This document shows positions 7,984 through 22,338 of a stretch of 64,000 nucleotides of DNA, piece after piece. The DNA lies in contig JALHMH010000012.1 of NCBI GenBank assembly GCA_022844165.1, positions 56,056 to 120,055 on the forward strand. The letters run 5' to 3'. The translations under genes were made by a program, and so were the position numbers. The notes beneath the pieces were generated by a model that was given only the letters and a program-made list of their open reading frames with translations, made no database searches and had not been told where the DNA came from. Source of the DNA: Lysobacterales bacterium. GTDB taxonomy: Bacteria > Pseudomonadota > Gammaproteobacteria > Xanthomonadales > SZUA-5. Within the stretch, counting starts at the first letter, position 1. Each line of letters begins with the position of its first letter.

Positions 7984-9372
7984 TCACGTGATCGCTTCGT
8001 CTGCCTCGCCCGGCGAACGAATGCCATATTTCTCCAAACGCCGATACAGCGCCGCGCGCGACAAACCGAGAATGTCGGAAGCACGTTGAACGTTGCCCTC
8101 GGCGCGAATCATCGCACGCCGAACCATCATTTCCTCGGCCGCGTCCAGTGTCATGTGATCGAGTTCGGTTTCGGTTGCTTGCGGTGCCGGGAAGCTGAAA
8201 GCCAGATCATCAATCTCGCCGCCGCGAGCCATCAGTACGGCTCGCTCCAAAACATGCGACAACTCCCGGACATTGCCGGGCCAGCCATAGCCAATCAGTG
8301 CGCGTTCGGCGCTGGGCGAGAGTTTCAGTGCGCTGCGCTGATAGCGCTCGGCGAAACGTGCCAACAGTCCACGCGCCAGTGGGAGTATGTCTTCCTTTCG
8401 CTCGCGCAGTGGTGGCAATCTGAGTTCGACGGTATTGAGCCGAAACAACAAGTCCTTGCGAAAACGACCCTTGGCGACATCGTCGGCAAGGTCCGCGTTG
8501 GTTGCCGAAATCAGGCGTATGTTGGCTCGACTCGTTCGCGACGAACCCAGGCGTTCGAACTCGCCGTCTTCAAGCACGCGCAGCAACTTCGGTTGTTGCG
8601 CAACGGGAATGTTGCCGACCTCGTCCAAAAAAAGTGTGCCGCCATCGGCCAACTCAAAACGCCCGATACGATCCTGCTTGGCATCCGTGAATGCGCCGCG
8701 CACATGGCCGAACATCTCGCTCTCGAACACGGATTCTGCGATGCCGCCCATGTTGACCTTAATCAGTGCTTTGTCGGCTCGCCGCGAATTTTGGTGGAGC
8801 AGGTCAGCGATCAGTCCCTTGCCGGTGCCGTTTTCGCCCAGCACCAGGATGTTTGCGTCCGTTGGCCCAACACGGGCGATCATGTCCAATATCGGACGCA
8901 TCGCGGCCGATTCCGCAACAAAATCCGCGCGCGTGCCTCGCAGGATCTCCACTTCACGTTCCAGTTTTTGCGCACGCTTTCGGGTTGCGCCGAAGTTTGC
9001 CTGATTGCGCAGGATCGACAGCAGGCGCGCGTTGTCCCAGGGTTTCTCGACAAAGTCGTTGGCGCCCCGGCGCATCGCCTCCACTGCAATATCAATCGTT
9101 CCCCAGGCGGTCATCACAACAACTGGCAGTTCAGCGTCCAGCGCGCGGATCTGAGCGAGTAGTTCAAGGCCTTCCTGGCCGCTGGTTGTGTCGCGTGTGT
9201 AGTTCAAGTCCATGAGCACGACCGAAACCGATTTGGTGCGCACAATTTCAAGGGCTGCTTCGGGGCTCATCGCCTGAAGCGACGCGATGCCCTCTGCCTT
9301 GAGCAGCAGACGCAATGCCTCCAAGACGTCACGCTGGTCGTCAGCAATGAGGATCGGTGCGTGTTCGGACAT
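7984..9372 (-). CDS. Sigma54-dependent response regulator (REC-AAA+-HTH, NtrC family)
   Basis: REC (ADD, LMDLN), Walker A GENGTGKG, GAFTDA loop, LFLDEVG, WPGNVREL, Fis-type HTH LGLSRAALYRRLEKYG. Confidence 0.93.
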   Translation of the reverse strand: MSEHAPILIADDQRDVLEALRLLLKAEGIASLQAMSPEAALEIVRTKSVSVVLMDLNYTRDTTSGQEGLELLAQIRALDAELPVVVMTAWGTIDIAVEAMRRGANDFVEKPWDNARLLSILRNQANFGATRKRAQKLEREVEILRGTRADFVAESAAMRPILDMIARVGPTDANILVLGENGTGKGLIADLLHQNSRRADKALIKVNMGGIAESVFESEMFGHVRGAFTDAKQDRIGRFELADGGTLFLDEVGNIPVAQQPKLLRVLEDGEFERLGSSRTSRANIRLISATNADLADDVAKGRFRKDLLFRLNTVELRLPPLRERKEDILPLARGLLARFAERYQRSALKLSPSAERALIGYGWPGNVRELSHVLERAVLMARGGEIDDLAFSFPAPQATETELDHMTLDAAEEMMVRRAMIRAEGNVQRASDILGLSRAALYRRLEKYGIRSPGEADEAIT

Positions 9373-9402
9373 GTCTGAAACTCTGACTGAAAATGGTGTA
9401 GC

Positions 9403-9418
9403 AGCAGTTTACGTGCCA
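9403..9418 (-). promoter_or_regulatory. Putative sigma54 (-24/-12) promoter
   Basis: Minus strand reads TGGCACGTAAACTGCT, with exact GG-N10-GC spacing, about 30 nt upstream of the regulator ATG. Confidence 0.6.
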
Positions 9419-9569
9419 TCGACAGCATCGTCTTCGAAAGAAACTGCTGGACCTGGAAAATGACCACCGTTTAACCTTGCATTTGGGCAGATTCGACACT
9501 ACATGCCATACTCGCGGGCTGCGCGCGTCGCTGCGCCGGAACTTACACTCATTACCTTTAGGAACTCTC

Positions 9570-10049
9570 ATGGCTGACGAAAACACCAACGGCGCAAACG
9601 GGAATGGCACGGCGGATCAAGGTCCGCAGCTGCAGGTGCAGAAGATCTACGTAAAAGATGCGTCGTTCGAAGCGCCGACGGCACCGCACATTTTTCAAGA
9701 GCAGGGCCAGCAGCGCATTGAGTTAAACCTCAATCAGAAGGCGCAGCAATTGGCGCCCAGCGTCTACGAAATTGTGCTGACGGTCACTGTGACCTGTAAG
9801 GTCGGCGAAAAGACGGCGTTCCTCGTGGAAGTTCAGCAGGCAGGCATTTTTGGCCTCCAGGGGTTCGATCCGCAGCAGCTCGATCTGGTCATCGGCACGT
9901 ATTGCCCGAACATCATCTTCCCCTATGCACGCCACGCAATATCGAGCCTGATCGAGCAGGGCGGATTCCCGCCGTTCCTGTTGCAACCGATCAACTTCGA
10001 GCAAATTTATGCCGAGCAGTTGCGTCGAAAGCAACAAGCAGCAGCCTGA
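9570..10049 (+). CDS. secB: Protein-export chaperone SecB
   Basis: QKIYVKDASFEAP, EVQQAGIF, CPNIIFPYAR, GGFPPFLLQPINFE. AGGA RBS before ATG 9570. Confidence 0.96.
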   Translation: MADENTNGANGNGTADQGPQLQVQKIYVKDASFEAPTAPHIFQEQGQQRIELNLNQKAQQLAPSVYEIVLTVTVTCKVGEKTAFLVEVQQAGIFGLQGFDPQQLDLVIGTYCPNIIFPYARHAISSLIEQGGFPPFLLQPINFEQIYAEQLRRKQQAAA

Positions 10050-10053
10050 TTGA

Positions 10054-11076
10054 GTGACGGCCGTGTCCACCATCGCCGTACTCGGCGCCGGATCATGGGG
10101 CACGGCACTTGCCAGTTTGTTGGCGAGAAATGGCGCGCAGGTGAACTTGTGGGGCCGTCGCAGCGGCGGCCTCACGCAGCTAAAGAACGGTTGGCGCAAC
10201 GAGCGCTACTTGCCAGGAATTGACCTGCCCAATTCGCTGCGTTACGGCACCGATATCGGTGATGCTGTCTGTGCCGCGGATTGGGTTCTGGTGGTTGTGC
10301 CGAGCCATGCGTTTGCCGAAACACTGATGAACCTTCGCGACGTTGCCGGCGCACCCAATGGCCTGGCCTGGGCAAGTAAGGGGTTCGAGCCCGGCTCTGG
10401 CGATTTCCTGCATGAGGTCGCTGATCGTATCTTCGGCACTCAGTTGCCCAAGGCAGTCGTCACCGGGCCGAGTTTCGCCAAAGAAGTTGCACTTGGTATG
10501 CCGAGCGCGGTGACAGTCCACTCGGATGACGATGAATTTGCGAAACAGGTCGCGACCTCGCTGCACGGGCCACAGTTTCGAGCCTATACCGGGAACGACA
10601 TACGCGGCGCCGAGTTGGGCGGCGCGATGAAGAATGTGCTGGCTGTGGCCACTGGTATCGCCGATGGTATGGGTTTGGGTCTAAATGCTCGCGCCGGGCT
10701 GATCACCCGCGGTTTGAACGAAATGCTGCGACTCAACAAGCCTCTGGGTGGCCGTGCCGAGACGATCATCGGGCTCGCGGGACTCGGTGACCTGGTGTTG
10801 ACCTGCACCGGCGATTTGTCGCGCAACCGGCGACTTGGGCTCGCGCTAGGTCGTGGTACGCCGTTGCCGCAGGCGATCGCCGAGATCGGCCAGGTGGTCG
10901 AGAGTGTGCAGACCGCGGATGAAGTCATGCGCCTGGCTGAGCGTTTTGGACTGGATTTGCCGATTGCCTCGCAAGTCCGTGCCGTGCTGCACGGCGATAC
11001 GACGCCCGAGAACGGACTTCGCGCTCTGCTGGCGCGAGATCAGAAGCCAGAATATGGCTCGGAATTGGGATTTTGA
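10054..11076 (+). CDS. gpsA: NAD(P)H-dependent glycerol-3-phosphate dehydrogenase
   Basis: [41 protein letters not shown]. Canonical secB-gpsA order. Confidence 0.96.
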
Positions 11077-11184
11077 GGCGAGCGCCTTTGGGATCGCGAT
11101 CCGCCCTGGTTCCAGAACGTCCTTAGGCGCTTGAGCAGGCCGATTCCGGTCTTGCATCCGAATGGTGCCCTGCGGCAGTAACAA

Positions 11185-11214
11185 CAGCAAATCGTGCTTT
11201 GTCGCGATTTGCTG
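11185..11214. promoter_or_regulatory. 10-bp perfect inverted repeat in the DUF4331 operon leader (possible operator or RNA hairpin)
   Basis: CAGCAAATCG-N10-CGATTTGCTG about 40 nt upstream of ATG 11256. Confidence 0.35.
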
Positions 11215-11255
11215 GCCATCAGAGCCAGCGTCTTCTCTCTATTTGAGGATGCGCT

Positions 11256-12647
11256 ATGAGACGTGTACTTTTGATTGTCGCTTTGGCAGCGAGTTCGAGC
11301 CTGTTCGCATCAAGTCATCGCGAAGCGCCTGGCATCACCAGGACGCCCAAGGTCGATGCGACCGATTTCTATATGTTTCGCAGCTACGAGCAGGGTCGCG
11401 ATGGCTTCGTGACTTTGATCGCCAACTATCTGCCGCTGCAAGACGCCTACGGTGGCCCCAACTACTTCTCGCTCGATCCAGAGGCGCTGTACGAGATTCA
11501 TGTCGACAATAATGGCGATGCGGTCGAAGATCTCACATTTCAGTTTCGCTTCCAGAACTTTTCCCAAGACTTGAGGATTCCGGTCAATGGTGTACCGGTC
11601 GCAGTGCCGCTGATCAATATCGGTCAGTTCGGCAATACACCTGAGGCGAATGACGCCGTCAAGAATCTGCTCGAAACCTATACGGTTGGCGTCATTCGAG
11701 GCGATCGCAACTTCGGCGATCCGGTGCTTGCACAGAACGCATCCATGTCGAATGTGACGCGCTTCCGCAAGCCCTTCGACTACATTGGTACGAAGTCCCA
11801 GCCGAACTATGCGCAGTACGCCGACAGTCACATTTGGCGTATCGCAATCCCCGGCTGCGGCGAGGGCAAGGTCTTTGTTGGTCAGCGCAACGATCCTTTC
11901 AGCGTCAATCTGGGCGAAATTTTCGATTTGATCAATCTCAATCCGCTCGGACCGGTGAACGGTGAGAGCAATACCATTGCCGATAAAAACGTCACGAGCT
12001 TGATACTGGAAGTTCCGATCGACTGTGTGCGCGGCAACTCGGACATCATTGGCGCGTGGACCACGGCCAGTCTGCCCGGCAAGGACGGCACGGTTTCGAG
12101 TGCGCGGCGCCCGTTTCGCCAGGTATCGCGTTTGAGCGCGCCGCTGGTGAACGAGGTGGTCATCGGCATTCCGGACAAGGACCGCTTCAACGCTTCCGAA
12201 CCGCGCAACGATGGCCAGTTCGCACAGTACGTGACGAATCCGACGCTTCCGGAGTTGATCGAGATTCTGTTTGCCGCACCGGCGCCGAACCAGTTTCCGC
12301 GCACCGATCTGGTCGCCGCGTTTTTGACGGGCGTGAACGGACTGAACCAACCACCGAATGTGACGCCCGCCGAGATGATGCGGCTGAACCTTGGAATTGC
12401 ACCCAAGGCTGCCGCAGCGCAAAGCAATCTTGGCGTGCTGGGCGGGGACACCGCGGGGTTTCCTAACGGACGGCGCCCAGGCGACGATGTTGTTGACATC
12501 GAACTACGTGTCGCCATGGGCGCGCTGTTGCCCAGTGACGTTGCTCCGGCGGGACAATTGCCCATCACTGATGGCGCCACGGTCAACGCAACGCAGTTCC
12601 GCAGCGCTTTTCCGTACCTGAATACGCCCATTCCAGGCGCCCGTTAG
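11256..12647 (+). CDS. Secreted DUF4331 family protein
   Basis: Signal peptide followed by SSHREAP, D-x-TDFY-x-FRS, FVGQRNDPF, QVSRLSAPLVNEV, GFPNGRRPGDDVVD, FPYL. Confidence 0.88.
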   Translation: MRRVLLIVALAASSSLFASSHREAPGITRTPKVDATDFYMFRSYEQGRDGFVTLIANYLPLQDAYGGPNYFSLDPEALYEIHVDNNGDAVEDLTFQFRFQNFSQDLRIPVNGVPVAVPLINIGQFGNTPEANDAVKNLLETYTVGVIRGDRNFGDPVLAQNASMSNVTRFRKPFDYIGTKSQPNYAQYADSHIWRIAIPGCGEGKVFVGQRNDPFSVNLGEIFDLINLNPLGPVNGESNTIADKNVTSLILEVPIDCVRGNSDIIGAWTTASLPGKDGTVSSARRPFRQVSRLSAPLVNEVVIGIPDKDRFNASEPRNDGQFAQYVTNPTLPELIEILFAAPAPNQFPRTDLVAAFLTGVNGLNQPPNVTPAEMMRLNLGIAPKAAAAQSNLGVLGGDTAGFPNGRRPGDDVVDIELRVAMGALLPSDVAPAGQLPITDGATVNATQFRSAFPYLNTPIPGAR

Positions 12648-12740
12648 CAGGCTGTTGAGAAACAGCCTGCGGGCGCGAACCATGGATGGTTCGCACATGG
12701 GAGAAACGCACAGGAAGTGCGTTTCTCAACAATGTGTTAG
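12644..12740. mobile_element. MITE-like element with IS5-type ends and TTAG direct repeats
   Basis: TTAG | CAGGCTGTTGAGAAAC ... GTTTCTCAACAATGTG | TTAG. Terminal inverted repeats match 13/16, with three internal hairpins. The left half recurs at about 39103-39150. Confidence 0.65.
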
Positions 12741-12753
12741 TCCATCGGCATCT

Positions 12754-12795
12754 GGTTCGGACATTTCGTCACCAGAAGTACGAAATGTCCGGACC
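12754..12795. repeat. 16-bp inverted repeat (hairpin) between DUF4331 and the TPR gene
   Basis: GGTTCGGACATTTCGT-N10-ACGAAATGTCCGGACC, 15/16 match. Confidence 0.6.
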
Positions 12796-12882
12796 GATGT
12801 TGTAACTCACAGCGTCTCGCTTCGGCGAGTCGCGAGTGCGGTTGACGCGCACGATGCAGAAAACCACAGATCGCTCGCCCCT

Positions 12883-13980
12883 ATGCCCATGCTCGGCCCA
12901 CTTTTGCTGATCTCCGCGATCGCTGCAACACCTTATCGCCCGACCGACGATGCACTGGTGCTCGGCCCTGTGACCAGCGATGCACCATCGGCGCTGAAGG
13001 AGCTGCGCGCAATCCAGAGCCCAGGCAGCGCCGCGGAATTCGCGCGGCGCATGTTGCTGCGCGCCGAAGAATCCCAGGACCCAACGTTTGCGCAATACGC
13101 GCTTGCCGCGGTCGAACGCCAGCCCGGTGCGGACGCAGAACAGCGCGTTCTGCGTGCAACAATCCTACAGCGCCTGCATCGTTTCGATGCGGCTCTGGCA
13201 GAGCTCGATGTCGCGCTTGAAGCCCCAGATCCGCCGGCCCAAGGATATTTCGTACGGGCGGTACTGCGCACGCTTCGCGCCGATTATGCCGGCGCACTCC
13301 GCGACTGCGCGGCATTGCTCGGGCGAATCGAAGCGCTGGGTGTTGCTGCATGCGCTGCACTTCCTCGTGCGCGCTCCGGCCAGGCGGAGATCGCATATTC
13401 GGCGCTGGTTGACATGCTCGATGCCAGTACTGGAGACAACGAGGTTACACGTTACGCCCATGGTGTTGCGGCCGAGCTGGCGTGGCGGCTGGCAAAGCCC
13501 GACGCGCTGGAACGGCTCCGTCGCGCGGCCGCGCACGGCAAACCGCTTCAGCGTCTTGCGTATGCCGATGCTTTGATTGCGCTCGGCCACAACGAAGAAG
13601 CGCTGACGGCAATCGATGCAATGCCGGGCGAAGGCGCAATGTTGCGCCGCGCGCGGGCGTTGTGTGCCGTTGGCGACAAGGAGTCGCTGCCAGCGCTCGT
13701 GTCTGCCCTGTGGGCGGGGATTGATGCTCGGGCGCTGCGCGGCGACGCCAGTCACGCTCGCGAAGATGCGTACTTCTTCGCGTACATCGAGCGTGACGCA
13801 AAGCGCGCGCTCAAGGCCGCCCAGGCGAACTTCAAGGAGCAGAAAGAACCGATCGACGCAGAGTTGTTGCTCGACGCGGCGGAACTGGCGGGCGACGATC
13901 CTGCAATGGAATCGGTGCGCCGCTGGCTCAGTACTCATGCCATCGCCGACGCGCATCTTGAACAGCGGTTAGCGCGATGA
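12883..13980 (+). CDS. Exported tetratricopeptide-repeat protein (DUF4331-associated)
   Basis: Short hydrophobic signal, PYRPTDDALVL, Ala-rich helical repeats (RATILQRLHRFDAALAELD, ALKAAQANFKEQKEPID). Start set at 12883 or 12889, after the MITE. Confidence 0.8.
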   Translation: MPMLGPLLLISAIAATPYRPTDDALVLGPVTSDAPSALKELRAIQSPGSAAEFARRMLLRAEESQDPTFAQYALAAVERQPGADAEQRVLRATILQRLHRFDAALAELDVALEAPDPPAQGYFVRAVLRTLRADYAGALRDCAALLGRIEALGVAACAALPRARSGQAEIAYSALVDMLDASTGDNEVTRYAHGVAAELAWRLAKPDALERLRRAAAHGKPLQRLAYADALIALGHNEEALTAIDAMPGEGAMLRRARALCAVGDKESLPALVSALWAGIDARALRGDASHAREDAYFFAYIERDAKRALKAAQANFKEQKEPIDAELLLDAAELAGDDPAMESVRRWLSTHAIADAHLEQRLAR

Positions 13981-15080
13981 GGTTTCTGACGGCACTGTTG
14001 TTATGCGTCGCCGGCAGTGCGGCTGCGCATCAGCCGAGCACCGCGTACCTGGCGCTCACCGTGAGTGGATCCAACATCGAAGGCCGCTTAGACATCGCGA
14101 TCGACGATGCGCAGCGTGTGTTCGCGTTGGACGCGAACAGCGATGGTTTGGCCACCTGGGGCGAGGCGCTTGCCATCGAAACGAACCTGCAACAACTGCC
14201 CGGCGAGGCGCTCGTATTGGCGCTGGACGGCGAGCCGTGTCGCTTCGCCCCGGCGCCGATCGCATTGGTGGAACACAGCGACGGCAACTATCTGGCATTG
14301 CGTTTTACTTCGACCTGCACGCGCAGCGGCGCGCTTGACGTACGCTATAACTGGCTGGTCGATGTCGATTCCGATCATCGGTTGTTGGCGCGGATTGATC
14401 ACGGCGGCGAACAAAGCGCCGTGTTCAGTAGCGAATCGCGGCGCGCGCGAATTGAGCCAGGAGCGCCTCAGGGCAGCGCAGCTTTTGCCGCGTTCTTCTG
14501 GCAAGGCGTGCTGCATATCGGCCTTGGGTTGGACCATTTGTTGTTCCTGAGCTGTCTGCTGCTACCCGCAGTGGTGTGCTATCGCGGTGGGCGCTACGAA
14601 GTCGCCGCCTCTGCGTGGATGGCGTTTGTCGATGTGGTCAAGGTGATTACCGCGTTTACGGTGGCGCACGCATTGAGTCTGACGGCGGTCACGTTCGAGT
14701 GGCTGCGTTTGCCGGTGCGTCTGGTTGAGGCCATGGTGGCAGCGACCATTCTGTTTGCGGCGCTCAACAACGTCCTGCCACTGGCCCGCAACGAGCGCCT
14801 TTGGGCCGTTGCATTCGGGTTCGGCGCAATCCATGGCGCCGGTTACGCTTCGGTGCTGGCGGGTCTGGAACTATCGAGCGCATCGATGTTACTCGCGCTC
14901 CTGGGTTTCAACCTAGGTGTCGAAGGTGCACAAGTCGCTGCTGCATCCATTTTCCTGCCTGTCGCGTATCTGTTTCGTCACCTGAAGCTCTATCGCCTCG
15001 TGCTGACCCTTGGTTCTCTGTTGATCGCCGGAGTGGCGTTGTTATGGCTCATCGAGCGCAGTTTCAATGTGCAGTTCTGA
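13977..15080 (+). CDS. HupE/UreJ family (HupE_UreJ_2-type) membrane protein with N-terminal periplasmic domain
   Basis: Signal AAA|HQPS, HX5DH signature (HIGLGLDH), TAFTVAHALSL, FGFGAIHG, GFNLGVE. Confidence 0.88.
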   Translation: MRFLTALLLCVAGSAAAHQPSTAYLALTVSGSNIEGRLDIAIDDAQRVFALDANSDGLATWGEALAIETNLQQLPGEALVLALDGEPCRFAPAPIALVEHSDGNYLALRFTSTCTRSGALDVRYNWLVDVDSDHRLLARIDHGGEQSAVFSSESRRARIEPGAPQGSAAFAAFFWQGVLHIGLGLDHLLFLSCLLLPAVVCYRGGRYEVAASAWMAFVDVVKVITAFTVAHALSLTAVTFEWLRLPVRLVEAMVAATILFAALNNVLPLARNERLWAVAFGFGAIHGAGYASVLAGLELSSASMLLALLGFNLGVEGAQVAAASIFLPVAYLFRHLKLYRLVLTLGSLLIAGVALLWLIERSFNVQF

Positions 15081-15493
15081 TCGTTTGTTGCCTCGCTGCT
15101 GCCAGCGCTTTCGGTCACGGTGCCGGCTTTCAACGCGATTCGGCGCAGGCCATGGTGTTGCGCTTTGGCTATTCCACCGGCGAACCGATGAGCGATACCG
15201 ATGTGGTGGTCCATGGTCCCGATCAATCGATCGCATTGCGCACGCGAACCGATCGTGACGGCCGGGTCGCCTTTGTGCCAACAACGCCGGGGGAGTGGCA
15301 GGCACAAATCGACGACGGACTGGGACACGAGGTCGCCGCCAAGGTGCTGGTCGATGACGACGGTGCGGTATCGATGCGTGGCGAAGCGCAGCGTGTGGCG
15401 GTCCCACAAACGTTGCTGCTGCTTCTGCTCGCGGCCTCGGTTCTGGGCAACGTGGTCCAGGCGTTCCGGCGCCGATCGTCGTCCAGCAAATAA
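15044..15493 (+). CDS. CbiL/NikL-like accessory protein of nickel/cobalt transport
   Basis: Signal AFG|HG, YSTGEPMS, TDRDGRVAFVP..PGEW...DDGLGH, C-terminal TM helix. Start set at ATG 15044. Confidence 0.65.
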   Translation: MAHRAQFQCAVLIVCCLAAASAFGHGAGFQRDSAQAMVLRFGYSTGEPMSDTDVVVHGPDQSIALRTRTDRDGRVAFVPTTPGEWQAQIDDGLGHEVAAKVLVDDDGAVSMRGEAQRVAVPQTLLLLLLAASVLGNVVQAFRRRSSSSK

Positions 15494-15512
15494 CATCTAT
15501 CTGAGACCTGCT

Positions 15513-17450
15513 ATGAAACGGATTTTGGTACTACTCGCAATCGGCGGCTCGCTCCACGCCCATGACTTGACCACGCTGCCGCAAGTCGAGGCGGTAGGGC
15601 AGTCCAAAAGTCGCATCAATCTGGGCCGCGCGGTTGAACAATTGCCCGCCGGTACGGTGGTGCTCGATAGCGAAGATCTGCAAGCAATGAACATCGGCCA
15701 CGTGATGGACATTTTCCGCACCAGCGCTGGTTTGGTTGTGCGCCATATCAACCAGGGCGATGTCGGCGACGACTTCGGTTTGCGGGGATTTTCGGGTGGC
15801 CACGGTGTCGATGCTGCGGTTTTCGTCGATGGTGTGCCAATCAATCAGGTCAACGGTCGCACGCATGGCCTTGCCGACCTCAACTGGCTGCTGCCGCAGA
15901 TGATCGAACGGGTCGAGATCACCAAGGGTCCGTTTTCGGCGCGCAGCGGCAATTTCGCGTTGGGCGGCGTTGTCAATATCGTGACCAAAGCCGGCATGGA
16001 CGGCGGACAAATCGATGCCACCGCCGGGAAGTTTGGTTTTGGTCAGGCCGTGGTGAGCTATGGCAAAGGTGCGTCGTATTTGACTGGCGAAGGCTTCACG
16101 ACCGATGGATTTCGCGACAACGCATTCTCTGAGCGTACCAGTGTGTTTGCGAAACACAGCTTCGGCAATGATGAGCATCGCTTCAGCGTCGTGGCGCAAT
16201 GGGATTCGCGACGCTTCGGTGCGCCGGCCTATTTGCCGGTCGACGACGTTGTCGCAGGGCGTCGGGCCCGCACCGAGGCGATTAACAACAGTGATGGTGG
16301 CGATGTCGATCACGCTCAGGCCTACCTGACTTACTTTGGCGAGATTAACGATCACACGGCGATCGATGCGCGCGCCTATGCCATTGCCGACGAACGCTCG
16401 CGCTTCGCAGACTTCGGCACCGGGCAGTCGGTGACCTTCACGGAAGGAACCACGTTTGGGCTCAGCGCCGACGTCGAACATTCGTGGGCGTCCTTCCTGC
16501 TGGCCGGGGGTGCCGACTTGCGTTTCGACGATACCGAACGCCTCGCACAGCGCAGCGTGCGCCGGATGCCTGGCGCGCAGACCAGCGATCGCTCGGCGGA
16601 GGTGTTGCAAACCAGCCTTTATGCCGAAGCGCAGTGGGCGCCAGTCGATACGCTCAGAGCGACACTGGGCGTGCGTTGGGATCAATTCGACAGCGACGTT
16701 GAGAATCGTTTCAACAGCAGCGCCAGCGGCAGTGGCAAGGGCGATGCACTCAGTCCCAAGTTTGGCATTGCCTGGCGTCCGGCAGAGTTCGTGGAGTTCT
16801 ACGCCAATCGTGGTCGTGGCTTGCGCTCACCTTCGCAAGTCGAACTCTCGCCGGACACCCGTGGTGCACGATTCCAGGACCTGGAACCCTTCGAGGTCAA
16901 GAGCAACGACATTGGTGTGCGCCTTTCCTGGGGCAGCGCCTTCAGCGCGGAACTGGCCGTCTACGACACCCGAACCAACGGCGAGTTCGTGCAGGTGGCG
17001 CCGGGTGAGTTCGCCAATCTGGGTTCAACCACGCGTGATGGTGTCGAAGGCGAATTGCGTTGGCGCGGTCAGTGGCTGGAGGCATTTTTTGGCGCGTCGC
17101 GTGTCGATGCCGAATTGGTGTCGACGAGCAGTGCCCGCGAGGTGACCGGCGTGCCGGGCAATTCGCAGGTCGCGGGCCTGACCTGGCGACCGGAGACTTA
17201 TGTGTTCGACGTCTACGCTCAGCGCCATGGACGTGCCCCGCTCAACGCGGCCGGCAGCATCTTTCGTGAGCCGGTGGTGTCGTTGTCGGCGAAGATCAGC
17301 CGACAGTTCGAGCGGTTTCGCGCTTTCGCGCAATTCACATTCAATCCAGACGACGAGCGCTCGGAAACGCAGTTCCTGATTAACGGCCGAAACGCGTTCG
17401 ACCCCTTGCCCACCTTCGATGCGCAGATCGGGGTTTCGGTGCCTTTGTGA
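15513..17450 (+). CDS. TonB-dependent outer-membrane receptor
   Basis: Signal peptide, TonB-box-like LPQVEAVG, plug LRGFSGGHG..VFVDGVPIN..HGLADLN..IERVEITKGP..GGVVNIVTK, amphipathic beta strands (LGVRWDQF, SPKFGIAW). Confidence 0.92.
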   Translation: MKRILVLLAIGGSLHAHDLTTLPQVEAVGQSKSRINLGRAVEQLPAGTVVLDSEDLQAMNIGHVMDIFRTSAGLVVRHINQGDVGDDFGLRGFSGGHGVDAAVFVDGVPINQVNGRTHGLADLNWLLPQMIERVEITKGPFSARSGNFALGGVVNIVTKAGMDGGQIDATAGKFGFGQAVVSYGKGASYLTGEGFTTDGFRDNAFSERTSVFAKHSFGNDEHRFSVVAQWDSRRFGAPAYLPVDDVVAGRRARTEAINNSDGGDVDHAQAYLTYFGEINDHTAIDARAYAIADERSRFADFGTGQSVTFTEGTTFGLSADVEHSWASFLLAGGADLRFDDTERLAQRSVRRMPGAQTSDRSAEVLQTSLYAEAQWAPVDTLRATLGVRWDQFDSDVENRFNSSASGSGKGDALSPKFGIAWRPAEFVEFYANRGRGLRSPSQVELSPDTRGARFQDLEPFEVKSNDIGVRLSWGSAFSAELAVYDTRTNGEFVQVAPGEFANLGSTTRDGVEGELRWRGQWLEAFFGASRVDAELVSTSSAREVTGVPGNSQVAGLTWRPETYVFDVYAQRHGRAPLNAAGSIFREPVVSLSAKISRQFERFRAFAQFTFNPDDERSETQFLINGRNAFDPLPTFDAQIGVSVPL

Positions 17451-17493
17451 CGACATTCATCGTTTCCATTGCAGATTCGACAGGAGCATCTCT

Positions 17494-18147
17494 GTGAAAT
17501 ACACAATATCGCTGGCGTTACTGGTTTTCGCGACTCAGGTGGGTGCGCACGATGTTTATGTCGATGCGACCGGTCTGGTCGTGTACGGGCATCCAGGTCA
17601 GCATGAGCCGTATCCTGCCAGCAAGCTGCGTAGCGTTCAGGCGATTGGTGCGGACGGGCAGATACGATTGCCCGGCATCGAGCGGCGAAACGAGATGAGC
17701 TATCTCAACACTGAAGGTGCTGCGGTGATCCATGTTGACTTCGACAACGGCCTGTTTGCCAAGACGCCGGAGGCAGGCAAATTCGTGCCCGGCGGCCGCG
17801 ATCAGCACCCAGGTGCCACCGAGGTTCGAAATTTCGTCAAGTACGGAAGATCCGTCTTCGTTTTCGCCGATCCGGCACTCAAGCCCAGCGGTGCCAAGTT
17901 TGAAATCGTGCCGTTGCGAGCACCGGCCGACGGGTTATTGGCGGTCGAGGTGCGGTTCGAGGGTCAACCTCTCGCGGCGGCTGTTGTCAGTCATGGCGAC
18001 TCAACCAGTGTCGCTGATGCAAGTGGGCGTGTGATGTTGCCGCATGCGCCGGATGCTCCGCAGCTGTATACCTCGCGGCATGAGCAGCCCGGTGTGGGTG
18101 CGGTAGATCGCGTGGTCTACGGCGCGGCATTGTGGGTTGCGCCGTAA
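17494..18147 (+). CDS. Periplasmic DUF4198-like protein (associated with Ni/Co uptake)
   Basis: AGGAG RBS and GTG start, signal VGA|HDVYV, YGHPG, KYGRS, FEIVPL, VRFEGQPLAAA-x-V. Confidence 0.75.
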   Translation: MKYTISLALLVFATQVGAHDVYVDATGLVVYGHPGQHEPYPASKLRSVQAIGADGQIRLPGIERRNEMSYLNTEGAAVIHVDFDNGLFAKTPEAGKFVPGGRDQHPGATEVRNFVKYGRSVFVFADPALKPSGAKFEIVPLRAPADGLLAVEVRFEGQPLAAAVVSHGDSTSVADASGRVMLPHAPDAPQLYTSRHEQPGVGAVDRVVYGAALWVAP

Positions 18148-18292
18148 CGGCGGATCAGTACCAGGGGTCAGGCCAAGCCGGGACAAAGTGGGCAAAAGCA
18201 AGGCGCGCACGCGGCGGCTGCGTTCGGACCCTTCACCCGAACCCGATTTGCCGGTACGCTTCCGCCCCTTGTGCAGGGGAGGACGGCCCACA

Positions 18293-20851
18293 ATGGATCG
18301 CGTTCTGATGATCGAAGCTTCGGCGACGCGACGTCGTGCGTTGTCTGGCATGTTGACTCAGAAGGCGTTTGCGGTGCGTGTGGTGGCGAACTACGCCGAT
18401 GGCCTTACCGCCATTGGTGCCGAACACGCAGCCGCGATCATCGTCAGTTGGCCGGAATACTCGGATCGCCGCGCCGACGAGGTCTTCGCGCTCCTGCGCT
18501 CCCGCGACTATGCTCATTTGCCAGTGCTGGTCATGGCCGACTCGACCGACGCCGGCGCGCTGAGCTGGTTGATGAAACGCGAACACACAGCGTTGTTGCT
18601 CTGGTCAGACTATTCGGACGCGCCGGAAGCCTTGTGCAAGCTGATTCGTCCGAGCGCGAAACCGGCATCGGAAGTTGCCTCTGGCAACGCTCTGCGCGTG
18701 CTCTTTGTCGATGATTCGCCGACAGTACGGATTGCATTTAAACGTTTGCTGGCAGCCGAAGGATATCTGGTTGACACAGCCAATAGCGCCGAAGAAGGTC
18801 TGGCCCGAGCGCTGGAAGACGACTACAACATCGCCATTGTCGACTACTTTATGCCGGGTAACTCCGGTGCCGAATTGGTGCGGCAGTTGCGCGACAATCC
18901 GAAGACCGCGGGTGTTCTTGCGGCAGTCATCACCGGCACGTATTCAGACCGGGTCATTACAGAGTCGCTGAGTGCGGGCGCCGTCGAATGCATGTTCAAG
19001 AGTGAGGCGCGCGAACTATTTCTGGCGCGGATGCGGTCTTTGTCGCGCACAGTGCATGATCGAATGGCAATCGACAACGAGCGTCGGCGATTGCGCGGAA
19101 TTTTGACCTCGGTCGGTGAGGGCGTCTATGGCGTCGACCCAGCTGGTCGCATCCAGTTCATCAATCCGGCTGCGCTCGATATTCTCGGTTATCCGCATGA
19201 TGTCGATTTCAGGGGTCAATCGGCAGCTGAGCGTTTCCATTTCGCTTTCGAAGATCGCACACGCATCCCGCCTGCGGCGTGTTTCTTGAGCCAGTGTTAT
19301 ATCGACGGTAATCAGGTCAGCGCCTGGCAGACGGTTTTTTGGCACCAATCCGGGCGTTCTGTACCGGTCGAATGCACCGTGTATCCGCTCGACATTGACG
19401 GTCAGCGCGAAGGATCCGTTGTGGCTTTTCGCGACGTATCGCAACAGCGTTTACTGGAAGAAGAACTGCGCTGGCAGGCAAGTCACGATTCGCTCACCAA
19501 GCTGCACAACCGGGCGCATTTCGAGCAAGCGCTTCAGCAGGAAGTGGCGCGCCTCAGGCGCTCCGACCAGGTGTCGCTGCTGTTGTTTATCGATGTCGAT
19601 CGATTCAAATACATCAACGATACCCTTGGCCATGCGGCTGGCGATCAGCTGCTGGTCGAGGCGAGCCACCGATTGAAAGCGCGGCTTCGCGTCGGTGACA
19701 CGATTGCCCGCATGGGTGGCGATGAATACGCGTTGATTATTCGCAATGCGCAGGCGCTCGATCCTTTGCAAGCCGGGGATGAGTTCCGGCGAGCACTGTC
19801 GGGTGAGTTGTTCTCGTACGGTGAGCAGCACTATCGACTGTCGGCGAGCATCGGCATCGCACGGTTGGATCGCAACTCGATGTCGCCGTCCGATGCGATG
19901 GCGAATGCCGATATCGCCTGTCATATCGCCAAGAACAAGGGCCGCAATCAGGTCCACGTGTACTCATACGACAGCGATCAACGGGCGTCAATGGACATCG
20001 AACTGAACTGGTCGGTGCGACTTGAAGAGGCGATCCGCGACAACCTTTTTGTCCTTTGTTTCCAACCGATCTTGCCGCTCGCCGATATCGACCTTTCGGC
20101 GTTGCCTGGTGCAGAGGGCGAACTTTGGCAGTCGCATCTGAATCAGCACGCGCATCGCCGCGTCTACTACGAGGTGTTGTTGCGCATGCGCTCGCAAAGT
20201 GGGGCGCTCGTCGCGCCCGATGCGTTTCTGCCGACTGCCGAGCGTTACAACATGATGCTGGATATCGATAAGTGGGTGCTGCACCACGCGCTCAAAGCGC
20301 TGCGTGAGCAGCAGTTGCTGAATCCGAGTCATCGGCTAGGTCTGTCGATTAACCTATCGGCTCAGTCATTAGGCGCCAATGGCATTGGCCGATTTGTGAT
20401 CGACAAACTCGTCGAGTTCGATGTCGAGCCATCCTTGATTACATTCGAAATCACTGAAACCAAGGCGGTCACCAATCTCGACGCCGCCCGCGAGTTGATT
20501 GCGATGTTGCGTGCCCAGGGGTGTCGTTTCGCGTTGGACGATTTTGGCTGTGGCTTTTCGTCGTTCAGCCATTTGAAGCACCTCAATGTCGATTTCCTCA
20601 AAATCGATGGGTCGTTCATCCAGGGATTGCTCGAGGATCCCGTCGACCGTGCGGTCATCGCGGCAATCAACAACATCGCCCATTCGGTCGGCAAGCGAAC
20701 GGTTGCCGAGTACGTGGATCGCCCTGACGTGTTGTCCGCACTGCACAGCTGTGGCGTAGATTTTGTCCAGGGCTACTACGTCGGCCGGCCGATGGACTCG
20801 CTGAATCACGCGCTGGCGCACTTGCCGGCGCGGGAGTTGTTGGTCGCTTAA
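18293..20851 (+). CDS. REC(degenerate)-REC-PAS-GGDEF-EAL diguanylate cyclase/phosphodiesterase
   Basis: Second REC FVDDS/IVDYFMP, PAS (FINPAAL..VVAFRDVS), HDSLTKLHNR, DVDRFKYINDTLGH, RMGGDEY, EVLLR, DDFGCG, LKIDGSF. Confidence 0.92.
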   Translation: MDRVLMIEASATRRRALSGMLTQKAFAVRVVANYADGLTAIGAEHAAAIIVSWPEYSDRRADEVFALLRSRDYAHLPVLVMADSTDAGALSWLMKREHTALLLWSDYSDAPEALCKLIRPSAKPASEVASGNALRVLFVDDSPTVRIAFKRLLAAEGYLVDTANSAEEGLARALEDDYNIAIVDYFMPGNSGAELVRQLRDNPKTAGVLAAVITGTYSDRVITESLSAGAVECMFKSEARELFLARMRSLSRTVHDRMAIDNERRRLRGILTSVGEGVYGVDPAGRIQFINPAALDILGYPHDVDFRGQSAAERFHFAFEDRTRIPPAACFLSQCYIDGNQVSAWQTVFWHQSGRSVPVECTVYPLDIDGQREGSVVAFRDVSQQRLLEEELRWQASHDSLTKLHNRAHFEQALQQEVARLRRSDQVSLLLFIDVDRFKYINDTLGHAAGDQLLVEASHRLKARLRVGDTIARMGGDEYALIIRNAQALDPLQAGDEFRRALSGELFSYGEQHYRLSASIGIARLDRNSMSPSDAMANADIACHIAKNKGRNQVHVYSYDSDQRASMDIELNWSVRLEEAIRDNLFVLCFQPILPLADIDLSALPGAEGELWQSHLNQHAHRRVYYEVLLRMRSQSGALVAPDAFLPTAERYNMMLDIDKWVLHHALKALREQQLLNPSHRLGLSINLSAQSLGANGIGRFVIDKLVEFDVEPSLITFEITETKAVTNLDAARELIAMLRAQGCRFALDDFGCGFSSFSHLKHLNVDFLKIDGSFIQGLLEDPVDRAVIAAINNIAHSVGKRTVAEYVDRPDVLSALHSCGVDFVQGYYVGRPMDSLNHALAHLPARELLVA

Positions 20852-20937
20852 GCGCTGCGTAATCGCGCGTGTTGAAACTTCGTTCCTGAATTTGAGAAAC
20901 TGCGATCGATCCGTCAAACGCCAGCGACCCCGATCGC

Positions 20938-22338
20938 GTGCAGCAACCCTCGTTCCTCTGGCACGACTACGAGAGTTTTGGCGTTGAGCCTCGGCGCGAT
21001 CGACCGGCCGAATTCGCTGCGCTGCGCACGGATACGGACTTCAATCCGATCGCTGAGCCAGTGACGATTCGCTGCCAGCCCACGATCGATTATTTGCCCG
21101 ACCCGGACGCCTGTCGCGTGACCGGGATCGGTCCGATGCAGGCATTGGAAACGGGCTTGCCGGAACCGCAATTTGCGGCTCGAGTGTTTGGCGAGATGTG
21201 CGAGCCGCAGACCTGCGTGGTGGGTTACAACAATCTGCGATTCGACGATGAAATGACGCGCCATTTGTTCTGGCGAAACTTCTTCGATCCCTATGCCCGC
21301 GAATGGCAGAACGGCAATTCGCGCTTCGACATGATCGATCTGATGCGTGCGGCTTACGCGTTACGTCCGCACGGATTGCATTGGCCGCAGCGCGACGACG
21401 GCGCGCCCAGTTTTCGACTCGACGAACTGGCGCCAGCCAATGGAGTGAAACACGAACATGCGCATTCCGCGTTGGCGGACGTCGAAGCGACGCTGGGTCT
21501 TGCGCGCAAGTTGCGGGCGGCGCAACCCAAGCTCTTTGAGCACGCCCTGAGCCTGCGCGACAAGCACCGGGTGTCAGGCATGTTGAACTGGCAGGCGCGC
21601 GCGCCCTTGGTGCATGTTTCGCAGCGGTTTCCTGCGGCCCGCGGTTGTTTGGCGATTGTCGTCCCGTTGGCATTCCATCCCAGACAGTCAGGAAAAATCA
21701 TTGTTTACGACAGCTACCACGATCCTGCGCCCTTATTGACCGAATCGCCGCAGCGTTTGTCTGAGTTGCTGTTGTTGCCCGGCGACGCAGCTTCGCGCAC
21801 GCCGCTGGGCCTGAAGCTGGTGCACACCAACAAAGTGCCGTTCCTCGCGCCGTTGTCGGTCTTGACGGGCGTCGATCTCGCGCGCATAGCGCTTGACCGA
21901 GAACGCTGTATGGCCAACGTATGCAGCGTGCAGAACGCGCCAGATCTGGATCGCAAGGTTCAAGAGATATTTGCATCTGTGGACGAAAGCCAGCGTGCCA
22001 ATGAAGAGGACGTTGACAGCGCGTTGTACAGCGGGTTCGTCAGCGACGCTGACCGCAGATTGTGCTCTCGATTTCGTTCGGCCTCGCCCGAACAGATGGC
22101 GGAGGTCGCATTGGGATTTCAAGATTGCAGATTGCGCGAGTTGGCGTTTCGCTATCGCGCCCGGCATTTCAACGGCACTTTGAGCCCGATCGAAAAGGAC
22201 CTCTGGCGTGCGTACGGTCGTCGGCAACAGCAAAATGGAAAGAGACCGTTTGCCGCCGTGCTCGAAGCCGCAAATCGCTTTGATGATGCGGTTCGCGTCG
22301 ATGTACTGCGCTGGCTGGAACTGGCCAGCGCAATTTGA
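20938..22338 (+). CDS. sbcB: Exodeoxyribonuclease I
   Basis: FLWHDYESFG..PRRDRPAEFA, GYNNLRFDDE, DPYAREWQNGNSRFD, AHSALADV. Confidence 0.95.
   Translation: MQQPSFLWHDYESFGVEPRRDRPAEFAALRTDTDFNPIAEPVTIRCQPTIDYLPDPDACRVTGIGPMQALETGLPEPQFAARVFGEMCEPQTCVVGYNNLRFDDEMTRHLFWRNFFDPYAREWQNGNSRFDMIDLMRAAYALRPHGLHWPQRDDGAPSFRLDELAPANGVKHEHAHSALADVEATLGLARKLRAAQPKLFEHALSLRDKHRVSGMLNWQARAPLVHVSQRFPAARGCLAIVVPLAFHPRQSGKIIVYDSYHDPAPLLTESPQRLSELLLLPGDAASRTPLGLKLVHTNKVPFLAPLSVLTGVDLARIALDRERCMANVCSVQNAPDLDRKVQEIFASVDESQRANEEDVDSALYSGFVSDADRRLCSRFRSASPEQMAEVALGFQDCRLRELAFRYRARHFNGTLSPIEKDLWRAYGRRQQQNGKRPFAAVLEAANRFDDAVRVDVLRWLELASAI

Follow-up and report, generated by a model that had tools for sequence, protein, structure and literature searches.

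What is the role of a gene cluster in which a secreted protein of the domain family DUF4331 stands ahead of a permease, a TonB-dependent receptor and a NikK-type protein? This question is raised by a 64,000-nucleotide stretch of the Lysobacterales bacterium assembly GCA_022844165.1 (contig JALHMH010000012.1, positions 56,056 to 120,055 of the forward strand), hereafter called the window. Scanning the window for open reading frames (ORFs) and for Pfam and NCBIfam domains reveals six co-oriented genes within 11256–18147, in agreement with a first-pass annotation made from the letters alone, which had described them as an operon for transition-metal capture and import. They encode, in this order, the DUF4331 protein, a partner of the tetratricopeptide repeat (TPR) family, a HupE/UreJ-2 permease, a NikL-like protein, a small TonB-dependent receptor and a DUF4198/NikK-type protein (Table 1). 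Our preferred reading, to which we assign a probability of about 0.55, is that these genes form an envelope system capturing and importing a trace divalent transition metal under the control of an ECF18-type extracytoplasmic function (ECF) sigma factor, with DUF4331 and its TPR partner as the conserved core. Such a system is of a known kind, composed of a receptor, a periplasmic binder and a permease. The sigma-factor control, the amino-terminal histidines and the 'anglerase' architecture of gene 3, described in 2025, are additions to the first-pass annotation.

The domain assignments made from the letters are confirmed by Pfam, which places DUF4331, HupE_UreJ_2, the Plug and barrel domains and DUF4198 above their cut-offs. 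The DUF4331 gene matches PF14224 over profile positions 1–421 of 421 (E value 4.7e-143, 477.9 bits, cut-off 27), and its product begins with a signal peptide, in line with the secretion proposed for it. The signal peptide is followed by the invariant motif SSHREAP (11310–11330). At the other loci described below, a variable AxA precedes an invariant SSHRE[AG]P in 76 of 77 cases as well as in the window (three of the 80 loci were unreadable at this end: one truncated, one split and one without a start found). Of 61 more diverse relatives, 55 retain X-X-H and 50 retain SSH. Depending on whether the signal peptide is cut after AxA or after ASS, His21 is predicted to be residue 3 or residue 1 of the mature protein. 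A histidine at position 3, as in the amino-terminal Cu(II)- and Ni(II)-binding (ATCUN) type, or at position 1, as in the histidine-brace type, forms a classical amino-terminal Cu(II)/Ni(II) site.

The DUF4331 family is large, with 5,069 cluster representatives at E ≤ 1e-3, and shows identities of 53–63% across about seven phyla, as assigned from record titles (Pseudomonadota, Acidobacteriota, Nitrospirota, Melainabacteria, Verrucomicrobiota, Planctomycetota and Myxococcota). Its alignment contains the invariant C201 and C257, together with many invariant Asp, Arg and Asn residues. The AlphaFold2 model of the window protein, with a predicted local distance difference test score (pLDDT) of 92.9 and a predicted template modelling score (pTM) of 0.91, has a large two-part fold. 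A Foldseek search of the PDB with this model found nothing at E ≤ 1e-3, and its best hits were generic beta-sandwiches with a template modelling (TM) score of about 0.1; the PDB sequence search returned nothing at E < 0.6, and the ESM Atlas search gave no usable match. Several longer DUF4331 proteins (P0127, P0156, P0207, P0233, P0242 and P0252) carry extra C-terminal domains. The fused domains are CHRD (two proteins), SLH (two), alpha-carbonic anhydrase (one) and FlgD-Ig-like (one). The carbonic anhydrase, a zinc enzyme, apart, these are surface-anchoring or secretion signals. Because of the signal peptide, the invariant Cys pair and the SLH, CHRD, Ig-like and alpha-carbonic anhydrase fusions, DUF4331 is predicted to be extracytoplasmic.

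The gene neighbourhood of DUF4331 was surveyed in other genomes. A scan of genome contigs gave 597 matching stretches, 330 of which encode a DUF4331 relative; the counts below refer to the best 80 of these 330 loci with 10-kb flanks, drawn from about seven phyla and searched with iterated family-specific profiles for partners within 6 kb of DUF4331. A TPR gene is found at 57 of the 80 loci, a HupE/UreJ-2 gene at 56, and both together with DUF4331 at 53. Sigma factors of the ECF type accompany DUF4331 at 43 loci and anti-sigma ORFs at 34–41; the RskA- and ChrR-seeded profiles converged (34 and 41 of 80), and these ORFs are therefore counted as one class. A TonB-dependent receptor is present at 21 loci, including 14 of the 53 with the triad, and it is enriched near DUF4331 (22 matches in 854 kb within 6 kb, 17 of them co-oriented, against one match in 464 kb farther away). 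DUF4198 occurs at 12 loci, none of which has the triad (0/53). No NikL-like gene lies near DUF4331 at any of the 80 loci, the only other instance being in a genome of the same genus (G001). None of these partners is seen at five loci, two of which (L066 and L092) have less than 2 kb of contig downstream of DUF4331.

These counts show that the DUF4331–TPR–HupE2 triad is the conserved core, and that the receptor/NikK/NikL part is a lineage-specific addition made of parts that join DUF4331 in other combinations elsewhere. The co-occurrence foreseen in the first-pass annotation is thus seen for HupE/UreJ-2 and for the receptor, and for DUF4198 as well, although DUF4198 never stands with the triad and the NikL-like gene is seen only within the genus. 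The first-pass annotation would have been contradicted by last three genes that are transcribed apart and never accompany DUF4331 in other genomes; the receptor and DUF4198 counts show that such company does occur. The complete six-gene form is seen only in the genome of the window (hereafter the source genome) and in G001, where all six genes stand in identical order beside gpsA; another genome of the window's family (G003) retains four of the six, namely DUF4331, TPR, permease and receptor. Since G001 keeps all six genes in order and G003 four, chance does not account for the arrangement.

Individual loci vary around this core. In two Lysobacterales loci (L059 13996–14568 and L050 3843–4415), a His-rich ORF with HGHDHPH and HGHG runs lies between the permease and the TonB-dependent receptor, occupying the place of the NikL-like gene of the window. 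NikR genes adjoin three of the 80 loci (L033, L077 and L083). In the Nitrospiraceae locus L033 (14358–14816), the NikR gene (NikR_C, E value 1.8e-32) is placed between the permease and the receptor, and in the betaproteobacterial-type loci L077 and L083 weaker NikR-like ORFs follow the cluster. Acinetobacter loci contain a small Gly/Asn-rich lipoprotein-like ORF after DUF4331 (L027 11486–11737, L034 11489–11734 and L039 11429–11680), followed by TPR, a TonB-dependent receptor and a 290-aa ORF, with no HupE/UreJ-2 permease. The source genome itself contains two further DUF4331 genes. One, on contig C37 (L016 1475–6176), is a close second copy that follows a DUF4394 and Calx-beta protein and precedes a small chlorite-dismutase/DyP-like protein; a GCATCC...CGTAAC motif lies upstream of this operon, and a two-component system and a sulfatase adjoin it. 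The other, on contig C14 (L017 6870–10018), is a distant DUF4331 (89 bits) of the type commoner in related genomes. It precedes a TPR_19 protein, with no permease, so that the DUF4331–TPR pairing holds even in a remote paralogue.

The permease links this core to proteins with known metal binding. It matches PF13795 (HupE_UreJ_2) with an E value of 7.2e-37 (126.9 bits, cut-off 24.5), and the HX5DH motif noted in the first-pass annotation is intact as HIGLGLDH (14514–14537; residues 180–187) in the first membrane helix. From the N-terminus, the protein is composed of a signal peptide, the sequence AAA followed by His18, an Ang-1-like beta-sandwich (about residues 18–165) and the HupE/UreJ-2 membrane domain. 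In an alignment of 37 sequences, H18 is nearly invariant (≥90%), with AxA then His at the predicted cleavage site of the homologues, and D44, D52, H134, H180, D186, H187, H231, E251 and H286 are invariant. The AlphaFold2 model (pLDDT 92.0) finds as its top Foldseek match 9GCE, the Cu-bound RbAng-1a (E value 2.3e-5, probability 1.00, target TM 0.59, 14% identity), the next matches being the Zn proteins ZrgA and PA4063. At the sequence level there is no match to 9GCE: the single sequence has no PDB match at E ≤ 1, and the 37-sequence profile gives weak unrelated matches only. For this reason the domain is called Ang-1-like. The model nevertheless suggests that gene 3 has the anglerase-permease architecture, in which a domain with an N-terminal His is fused to HupE/UreJ-2. 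RbAng-1a binds Cu with a dissociation constant (Kd) of 74 nM and Ni with a Kd of 220 nM (PMC12537917). The Ang-1-like domain also contains an EF-hand-like loop at 14130–14165 (DANSDGLATWGE), in which D52 is invariant and E63 nearly invariant; the family profile weakly matches calmodulin-like proteins there, and the loop may be a calcium site.

The sigma-factor part of our reading draws on the promoter regions as well as on the adjacent sigma genes. The motif TG[CA]ATCC-N16-18-[CA]GTA, which agrees with the ECF18 consensus GCATCC / CGTAT in Table 4 of PMC13492112, occurs in 33 of the 78 regions upstream of DUF4331 (those of 77 loci and of the window); in 200 shuffles its mean count was 0.12 and its maximum 2. 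In the window it forms P1, whose equivalent in G001 lies at the same place, with CGTAAC. A second promoter-like motif, P2, precedes the NikL-like gene and is also present in G001; it suggests that this gene begins a separate but co-regulated transcript. A looser pattern has 69 matches in the 4.68-Mb source genome, four of which are at places predicted by the model: ahead of this operon, of the NikL-like gene, of the C37 DUF4394–DUF4331 operon and of an ECF sigma gene on contig C51. The leader between P1 and the start codon folds stably (11175–11260; –33 kcal/mol, z –3.45), and its stem is kept in G001 with G–U changes.

The product of the C51 gene (L108 1937–11489) is the best tblastn match in the source genome to the sigma factors adjacent to DUF4331 elsewhere, with 33–35% identity, and we infer that it drives both halves of the cluster. 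The C51 gene has a 155-aa ChrR-cupin partner and is flanked by a KatG-like catalase-peroxidase and a 1,065-aa TonB-dependent receptor. A tblastn search of the source genome gave no RskA-type anti-sigma gene. The available ECF18 literature, including that on P. syringae, mentions no DUF4331 gene among the targets of these sigma factors.

The last three genes would supply the outer membrane and periplasmic steps. The receptor contains a Plug domain (PF07715, E value 2.4e-18, 67 bits) and a barrel (PF00593, E value 1.2e-30, 108.3 bits), has no signalling extension, and is predicted to begin with HDL after cleavage. As had been noticed in the letters, it has His residues in the plug region, at positions 15, 17, 63, 78, 97 and 118 among the first 180. 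No characterised protein is closely related to it; in the PDB the best match by sequence is the colicin I receptor (1.6e-15, plug only). The DUF4198 protein matches PF10670 (41.4 bits, cut-off 34), and its best PDB match is 9gcb_A (E value 1.1e-15), which bears out its annotation as a DUF4198-like periplasmic protein. Its predicted mature end is HDVYV, preceded by VGA, and a second His in GHPG (17587–17598) aligns with His18 of 9GCB. In that structure, of IsDUF4198, Ni is held by His1 and His18, and the protein is stabilised most by Ni; DUF4198 neighbours typically include TonB-dependent receptors and NikR (PMC12537917). Gene 4 shows a signal peptide, the predicted mature end HGAG and, as described before, the sequence DDGLGH (15311–15328) and a membrane anchor, which is C-terminal. 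Its match to NF058648 (NikL) has an E value of 2.8e-9 and 37.2 bits against a cut-off of 100, and there is a weak CarboxypepD_reg match; given this score, it is called NikL-like and is not taken as a NikL equivalog. In four downstream proteins the predicted signal cut falls directly before a His: after AAA in the permease (14019–14039), AFG in the NikL-like protein (15110–15127), LHA in the receptor (15555–15569) and VGA in the DUF4198 protein (17542–17556). The receptors of L023, L029, L033 and L086 likewise begin with HD.

Taken together, the parts suggest the following mechanism. It builds on observed family memberships, fold similarities, conserved residues, gene linkage and the promoter motif, whereas signal cleavage sites, metal binding, transport direction, the metal itself and the sigma factor involved are inferred. 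The cluster would be switched on by an ECF18-type sigma factor whose gene lies at another site in the genome. The TonB-dependent receptor would carry the metal or a small chelate over the outer membrane, and the DUF4198/NikK-type protein would bind the metal in the periplasm through His1 and the histidine of GHP. Two parts with a predicted N-terminal His, the NikL-like protein anchored in the membrane and the Ang-1 domain, would hand the metal on, and the HupE/UreJ-2 channel with its HX5DH motif would pass it into the cytoplasm. DUF4331 with its TPR partner would hold metal with high affinity in the periplasm or at the surface, using the His at position 3 (ATCUN type) or position 1 (histidine-brace type) of its free amino end. 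A relay from outer membrane through periplasm to inner membrane, without an energy-coupling factor or ABC core, was part of the first-pass annotation. Support for this relay is partial. The missing core stands, as NikM/CbiM (PF01891), part of the core of the energy-coupling factor importer, was found neither in the cluster nor in the source genome. Three of the parts are members of, or similar to, families with published metal binding, namely Ang-1–HupE/UreJ-2 (Cu, Ni) and DUF4198 (Ni, Zn) (PMC12537917, PMC12663993); gene 4 is NikL-like only, and the last three genes of the relay are an add-on.

As to the metal, Cu(II) or Ni(II) is most likely in our analysis, with Zn and Co also possible. Nickel is indicated by the 9GCB relative, by NikR, a regulator linked to nickel metabolism (PMC12537917), at three loci, and by the NikK/NikL kinship. 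The preference of the Ang-1 relative for Cu and the amino-terminal His motif point to copper, and ZrgA, PA4063 and Zcp point to zinc.

Several observations weigh against the preferred reading. In the source genome, which is 99.97% complete, no urease, NiFe hydrogenase, CbiM/NikM (PF01891) or NikR (PF08753) is found, which extends the absence of urease and hydrogenase noted earlier from the window to the genome (a search for Ni superoxide dismutase was run without a positive control). Obvious cytoplasmic nickel use is thus missing, so that a simple account of nickel for cytoplasmic enzymes is weakened, and the possibility that DUF4331 is itself the client of the system is kept alive. Copper and nickel are not singled out, since the folds nearest the Ang-1-like domain include Zn proteins, and the cleavage sites of all cluster proteins are predictions from the –3/–1 rule alone. 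The high cross-phylum identity of DUF4331 fits an enzyme better than a simple binder. On the side of regulation, the –10 element of P1 opens with A (AGTA) in contrast to the consensus CGTA, P2 lies inside coding sequence at the 3' end of the permease gene, so that its conservation may reflect the protein, and the Pfam scan of the window found no sigma or anti-sigma gene adjacent to the cluster. Finally, with the NikL-like gene at none of the 80 loci and DUF4198 never with the triad, the six-part relay appears to be a local assembly, not a conserved machine.

Three other explanations have to be considered. DUF4331 might be an exported metalloenzyme that matures with the aid of the TPR protein, the other four proteins supplying metal to the periplasm and not to the cytoplasm. 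The identity of DUF4331 across phyla with its many invariant Asp, Arg and Asn residues, the large fold with no counterpart in the PDB, the lack of a classical nickel enzyme in the source genome and the single fusion to a periplasmic alpha-carbonic anhydrase would all suit such an enzyme. The DUF4198 protein Zcp of Neisseria gonorrhoeae offers a precedent, as it binds Zn and serves periplasmic clients, not uptake (PMC12663993). However, loading a periplasmic enzyme needs no inward permease, and HupE/UreJ-type proteins are described as importers (PMC2667541, PMC12537917); moreover, the PDB sequence, Foldseek and ESM Atlas searches revealed neither a catalytic motif nor an enzyme-like fold in DUF4331. 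We regard this explanation as unlikely, though the likeliest of the three.

The cluster could also belong to a stress response in which DUF4331 acts as a sponge that sequesters excess or redox-active periplasmic metal, with no acquisition. The receptor and the HupE/UreJ-2 permease are import parts and fit this picture poorly, as does the cluster's lack of any efflux pump, P-type ATPase or RND gene. Control by a stress-type ECF sigma factor whose anti-sigma partner is like RskA or ChrR would fit, and so would the position of the candidate C51 sigma factor next to KatG. ATCUN-type sites are very tight binders. A clade associated with metal efflux includes the RskA-linked ECF290 (bioRxiv 10.1101/2019.12.11.873521). 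The NikR genes beside three loci speak for nickel metabolism. Protective buffering is in our view quite unlikely. Import of an organic nutrient that DUF4331 binds or processes, the histidines being incidental, would agree with a receptor lacking close characterised relatives and with the absence of any recognised metal-binding domain from DUF4331 in Pfam, NCBIfam and PDB sequence searches; its many invariant Arg residues are a possible binding site for an anionic organic ligand. Against this stand two neighbours that match crystal structures containing metal and retain the ligand residues, the NikR and His-rich proteins at related loci, and the intact HX5DH of the permease. We consider a non-metal system highly improbable.

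Metal capture and import, our preferred reading, can be placed in a wider proposal, which we offer tentatively and at somewhat less than even odds. DUF4331 would be an extracytoplasmic metalloprotein of new fold that binds Cu(II)/Ni(II) through its Ser-Ser-His end and that, with the TPR protein and the anglerase-permease, makes up a conserved ECF18 regulon in at least seven phyla, to which a receptor and orphan NikK/NikL-like parts were recruited in this genus. DUF4331 is large and widespread, yet it is unnamed in the literature searched and has no similar solved structure: a full-text search gave no paper containing 'DUF4331', a search whose scope excluded the supplements of the ECF reclassification and of PMC12537917, which might name PF14224. 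It adjoins two families for which metal binding was demonstrated as recently as 2025, and stands under a putative sigma-factor promoter of its own. Neither the DUF4331/TPR core nor its link to ECF18 nor the combination of NikK/NikL with a receptor was found described in the available parts of the literature searched. If the proposal is true, a new protein fold would be added to bacterial copper and nickel handling, the 'orphan' NikK/NikL genes left open in 2009 would be explained, the missing partners of anglerase-permeases would be supplied, and ECF18 sigma factors would gain a target set. As far as the available literature goes, protein-based capture and import of trace metal would then be the first physiological role for ECF18-type sigma factors and anglerase-permeases.

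The TPR partner and the spacing of the genes require separate comment. The TPR gene of the window has no Pfam or NCBIfam match of its own and is 24–35% identical to 30 partners from other loci. TPR_19 is matched by 29 of the 31 aligned partner sequences, the window sequence being one of the two without a match; the label 'TPR' is given because of these relatives, so that the exported TPR protein of the first-pass annotation stands through its homologues although not through a domain match of its own. The predicted complex of DUF4331 with the TPR protein scored 0.00, which gives no verdict and weighs neither way on binding. The gap between the two genes (12648–12882, 235 nt) houses a repeat element that resembles repetitive extragenic palindromic (REP) or miniature inverted-repeat transposable (MITE) elements. 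Copies at 95–100% identity lie on at least nine other contigs of the source genome, among the first 40 of 140 blastn-short alignments, and the element is not present at the G001 locus. The segment 12640–12885 is strongly hairpinned (–122.6 kcal/mol, z –8.38), and the repeat element may uncouple the DUF4331 gene or stabilise its transcript. A small lipoprotein ORF like that of the Acinetobacter loci was sought and not found in the window, the gap being a repeat-element insertion.

Elsewhere the genes are tightly packed, with overlaps of 4 nt (TPR/HupE2) and 37 nt (HupE2/NikL-like) and gaps of 19 nt (NikL-like/receptor) and 43 nt (receptor/DUF4198). The description as closely spaced or overlapping therefore holds apart from the first gap. 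A sigma-70 promoter scan gave no sites, and terminator-like sites are no commoner than in shuffles. An Rfam search of 9000–21000 at E ≤ 1 matched nothing, which argues against a cobalamin or NiCo riboswitch there. On either side lie housekeeping or unrelated genes, those upstream encoding SecB and GpsA, those downstream exonuclease I and a response-regulator/PAS/GGDEF/EAL protein. The response-regulator gene (18137–20851) trails the cluster without an intervening terminator-like site; it is probably outside the module, because it is not found in the 4.2 kb downstream of the G001 cluster.

Table 1. Features of the DUF4331 cluster, in window coordinates. The likely starts of the TPR, NikL-like, receptor and DUF4198 genes (the last with GTG) were chosen by signal peptides and homologues; C12 denotes the contig of the source genome.
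Feature	Positions	Strand	Basis or remark
P1, ECF18-type promoter-like motif TGCATCC-N17-AGTAAC	11153–11183	+	about 100 nt before DUF4331 start; C12:67209
Leader hairpin, 12-bp stem	11185–11214	+	between P1 and start codon; second stem covers ribosome-binding region
DUF4331 protein, 463 aa	11256–12647	+	PF14224
Repeat element (REP/MITE-like)	12644–12740	+	blastn-short and RNA fold
Exported TPR-family partner of DUF4331, 365 aa	12883–13980	+	homology to partners at other loci
Anglerase-type permease (HupE/UreJ-2)	13977–15080	+	PF13795 and fold match
P2, ECF18-type promoter-like motif GCATCC-N16-CGTATC	14943–14971	+	73 nt before NikL-like start; C12:70998
NikL-like protein, 149 aa	15044–15493	+	NF058648 match below cut-off
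Small TonB-dependent receptor, 645 aa	15513–17450	+	Plug and barrel
DUF4198/NikK-type protein, 217 aa	17494–18147	+	PF10670

Compared with known systems, the cluster combines familiar parts in an unfamiliar way. Like members of the ECF18/ECF19 group that work with RskA-like anti-sigma factors (RpoT, RpoP and SigK), it has promoter-like motifs of the GCATCC...CGTAT type, and RskA_C genes adjoin many DUF4331 loci; the only candidate sigma factor in the source genome, however, is encoded on another contig and is paired with a short ChrR-cupin protein. The amino end of DUF4331 recalls ATCUN and histidine-brace sites in having an invariant His three residues, or one, past the predicted cut. It differs in its nearly invariant Ser-Ser ahead of the His, a feature required by neither motif, and in that the remainder of the protein is a fold without a solved relative.

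The NikKMLQO nickel importer likewise has NikL and NikK genes standing together, as the NikL-like and NikK-like genes do in the window. Here, by contrast, they flank a TonB-dependent receptor and not NikM/Q/O, a secondary permease takes the place of the ATPase-driven core, and the NikL match is far under the curated cut-off. The DUF4198 protein of the window retains the predicted His1 and the second His of IsDUF4198 (9GCB), is shorter (217 aa) than the DUF4198 metal-binding proteins, and matches Zcp at an E value of 0.6 only. In lacking a NikMQO core beside it, this protein resembles the orphan NikK, which, like orphan NikL, was seen and left unexplained by Zhang et al. 2009 (PMC2667541). The permease differs from the anglerase-permeases (RbAng-1a, 9GCE; Franco Cairo et al., Nat Commun 2025, PMC12537917) in having no sequence match to 9GCE and in its EF-hand-like loop. 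The neighbours of Ang-1 are mostly of 'unknown function' in that paper, whose main text mentions neither DUF4331 nor TPR proteins nor sigma factors. With the anglerase-permeases the window protein shares the signal peptide, the predicted mature His1, the beta-sandwich and the PF13795 membrane domain.

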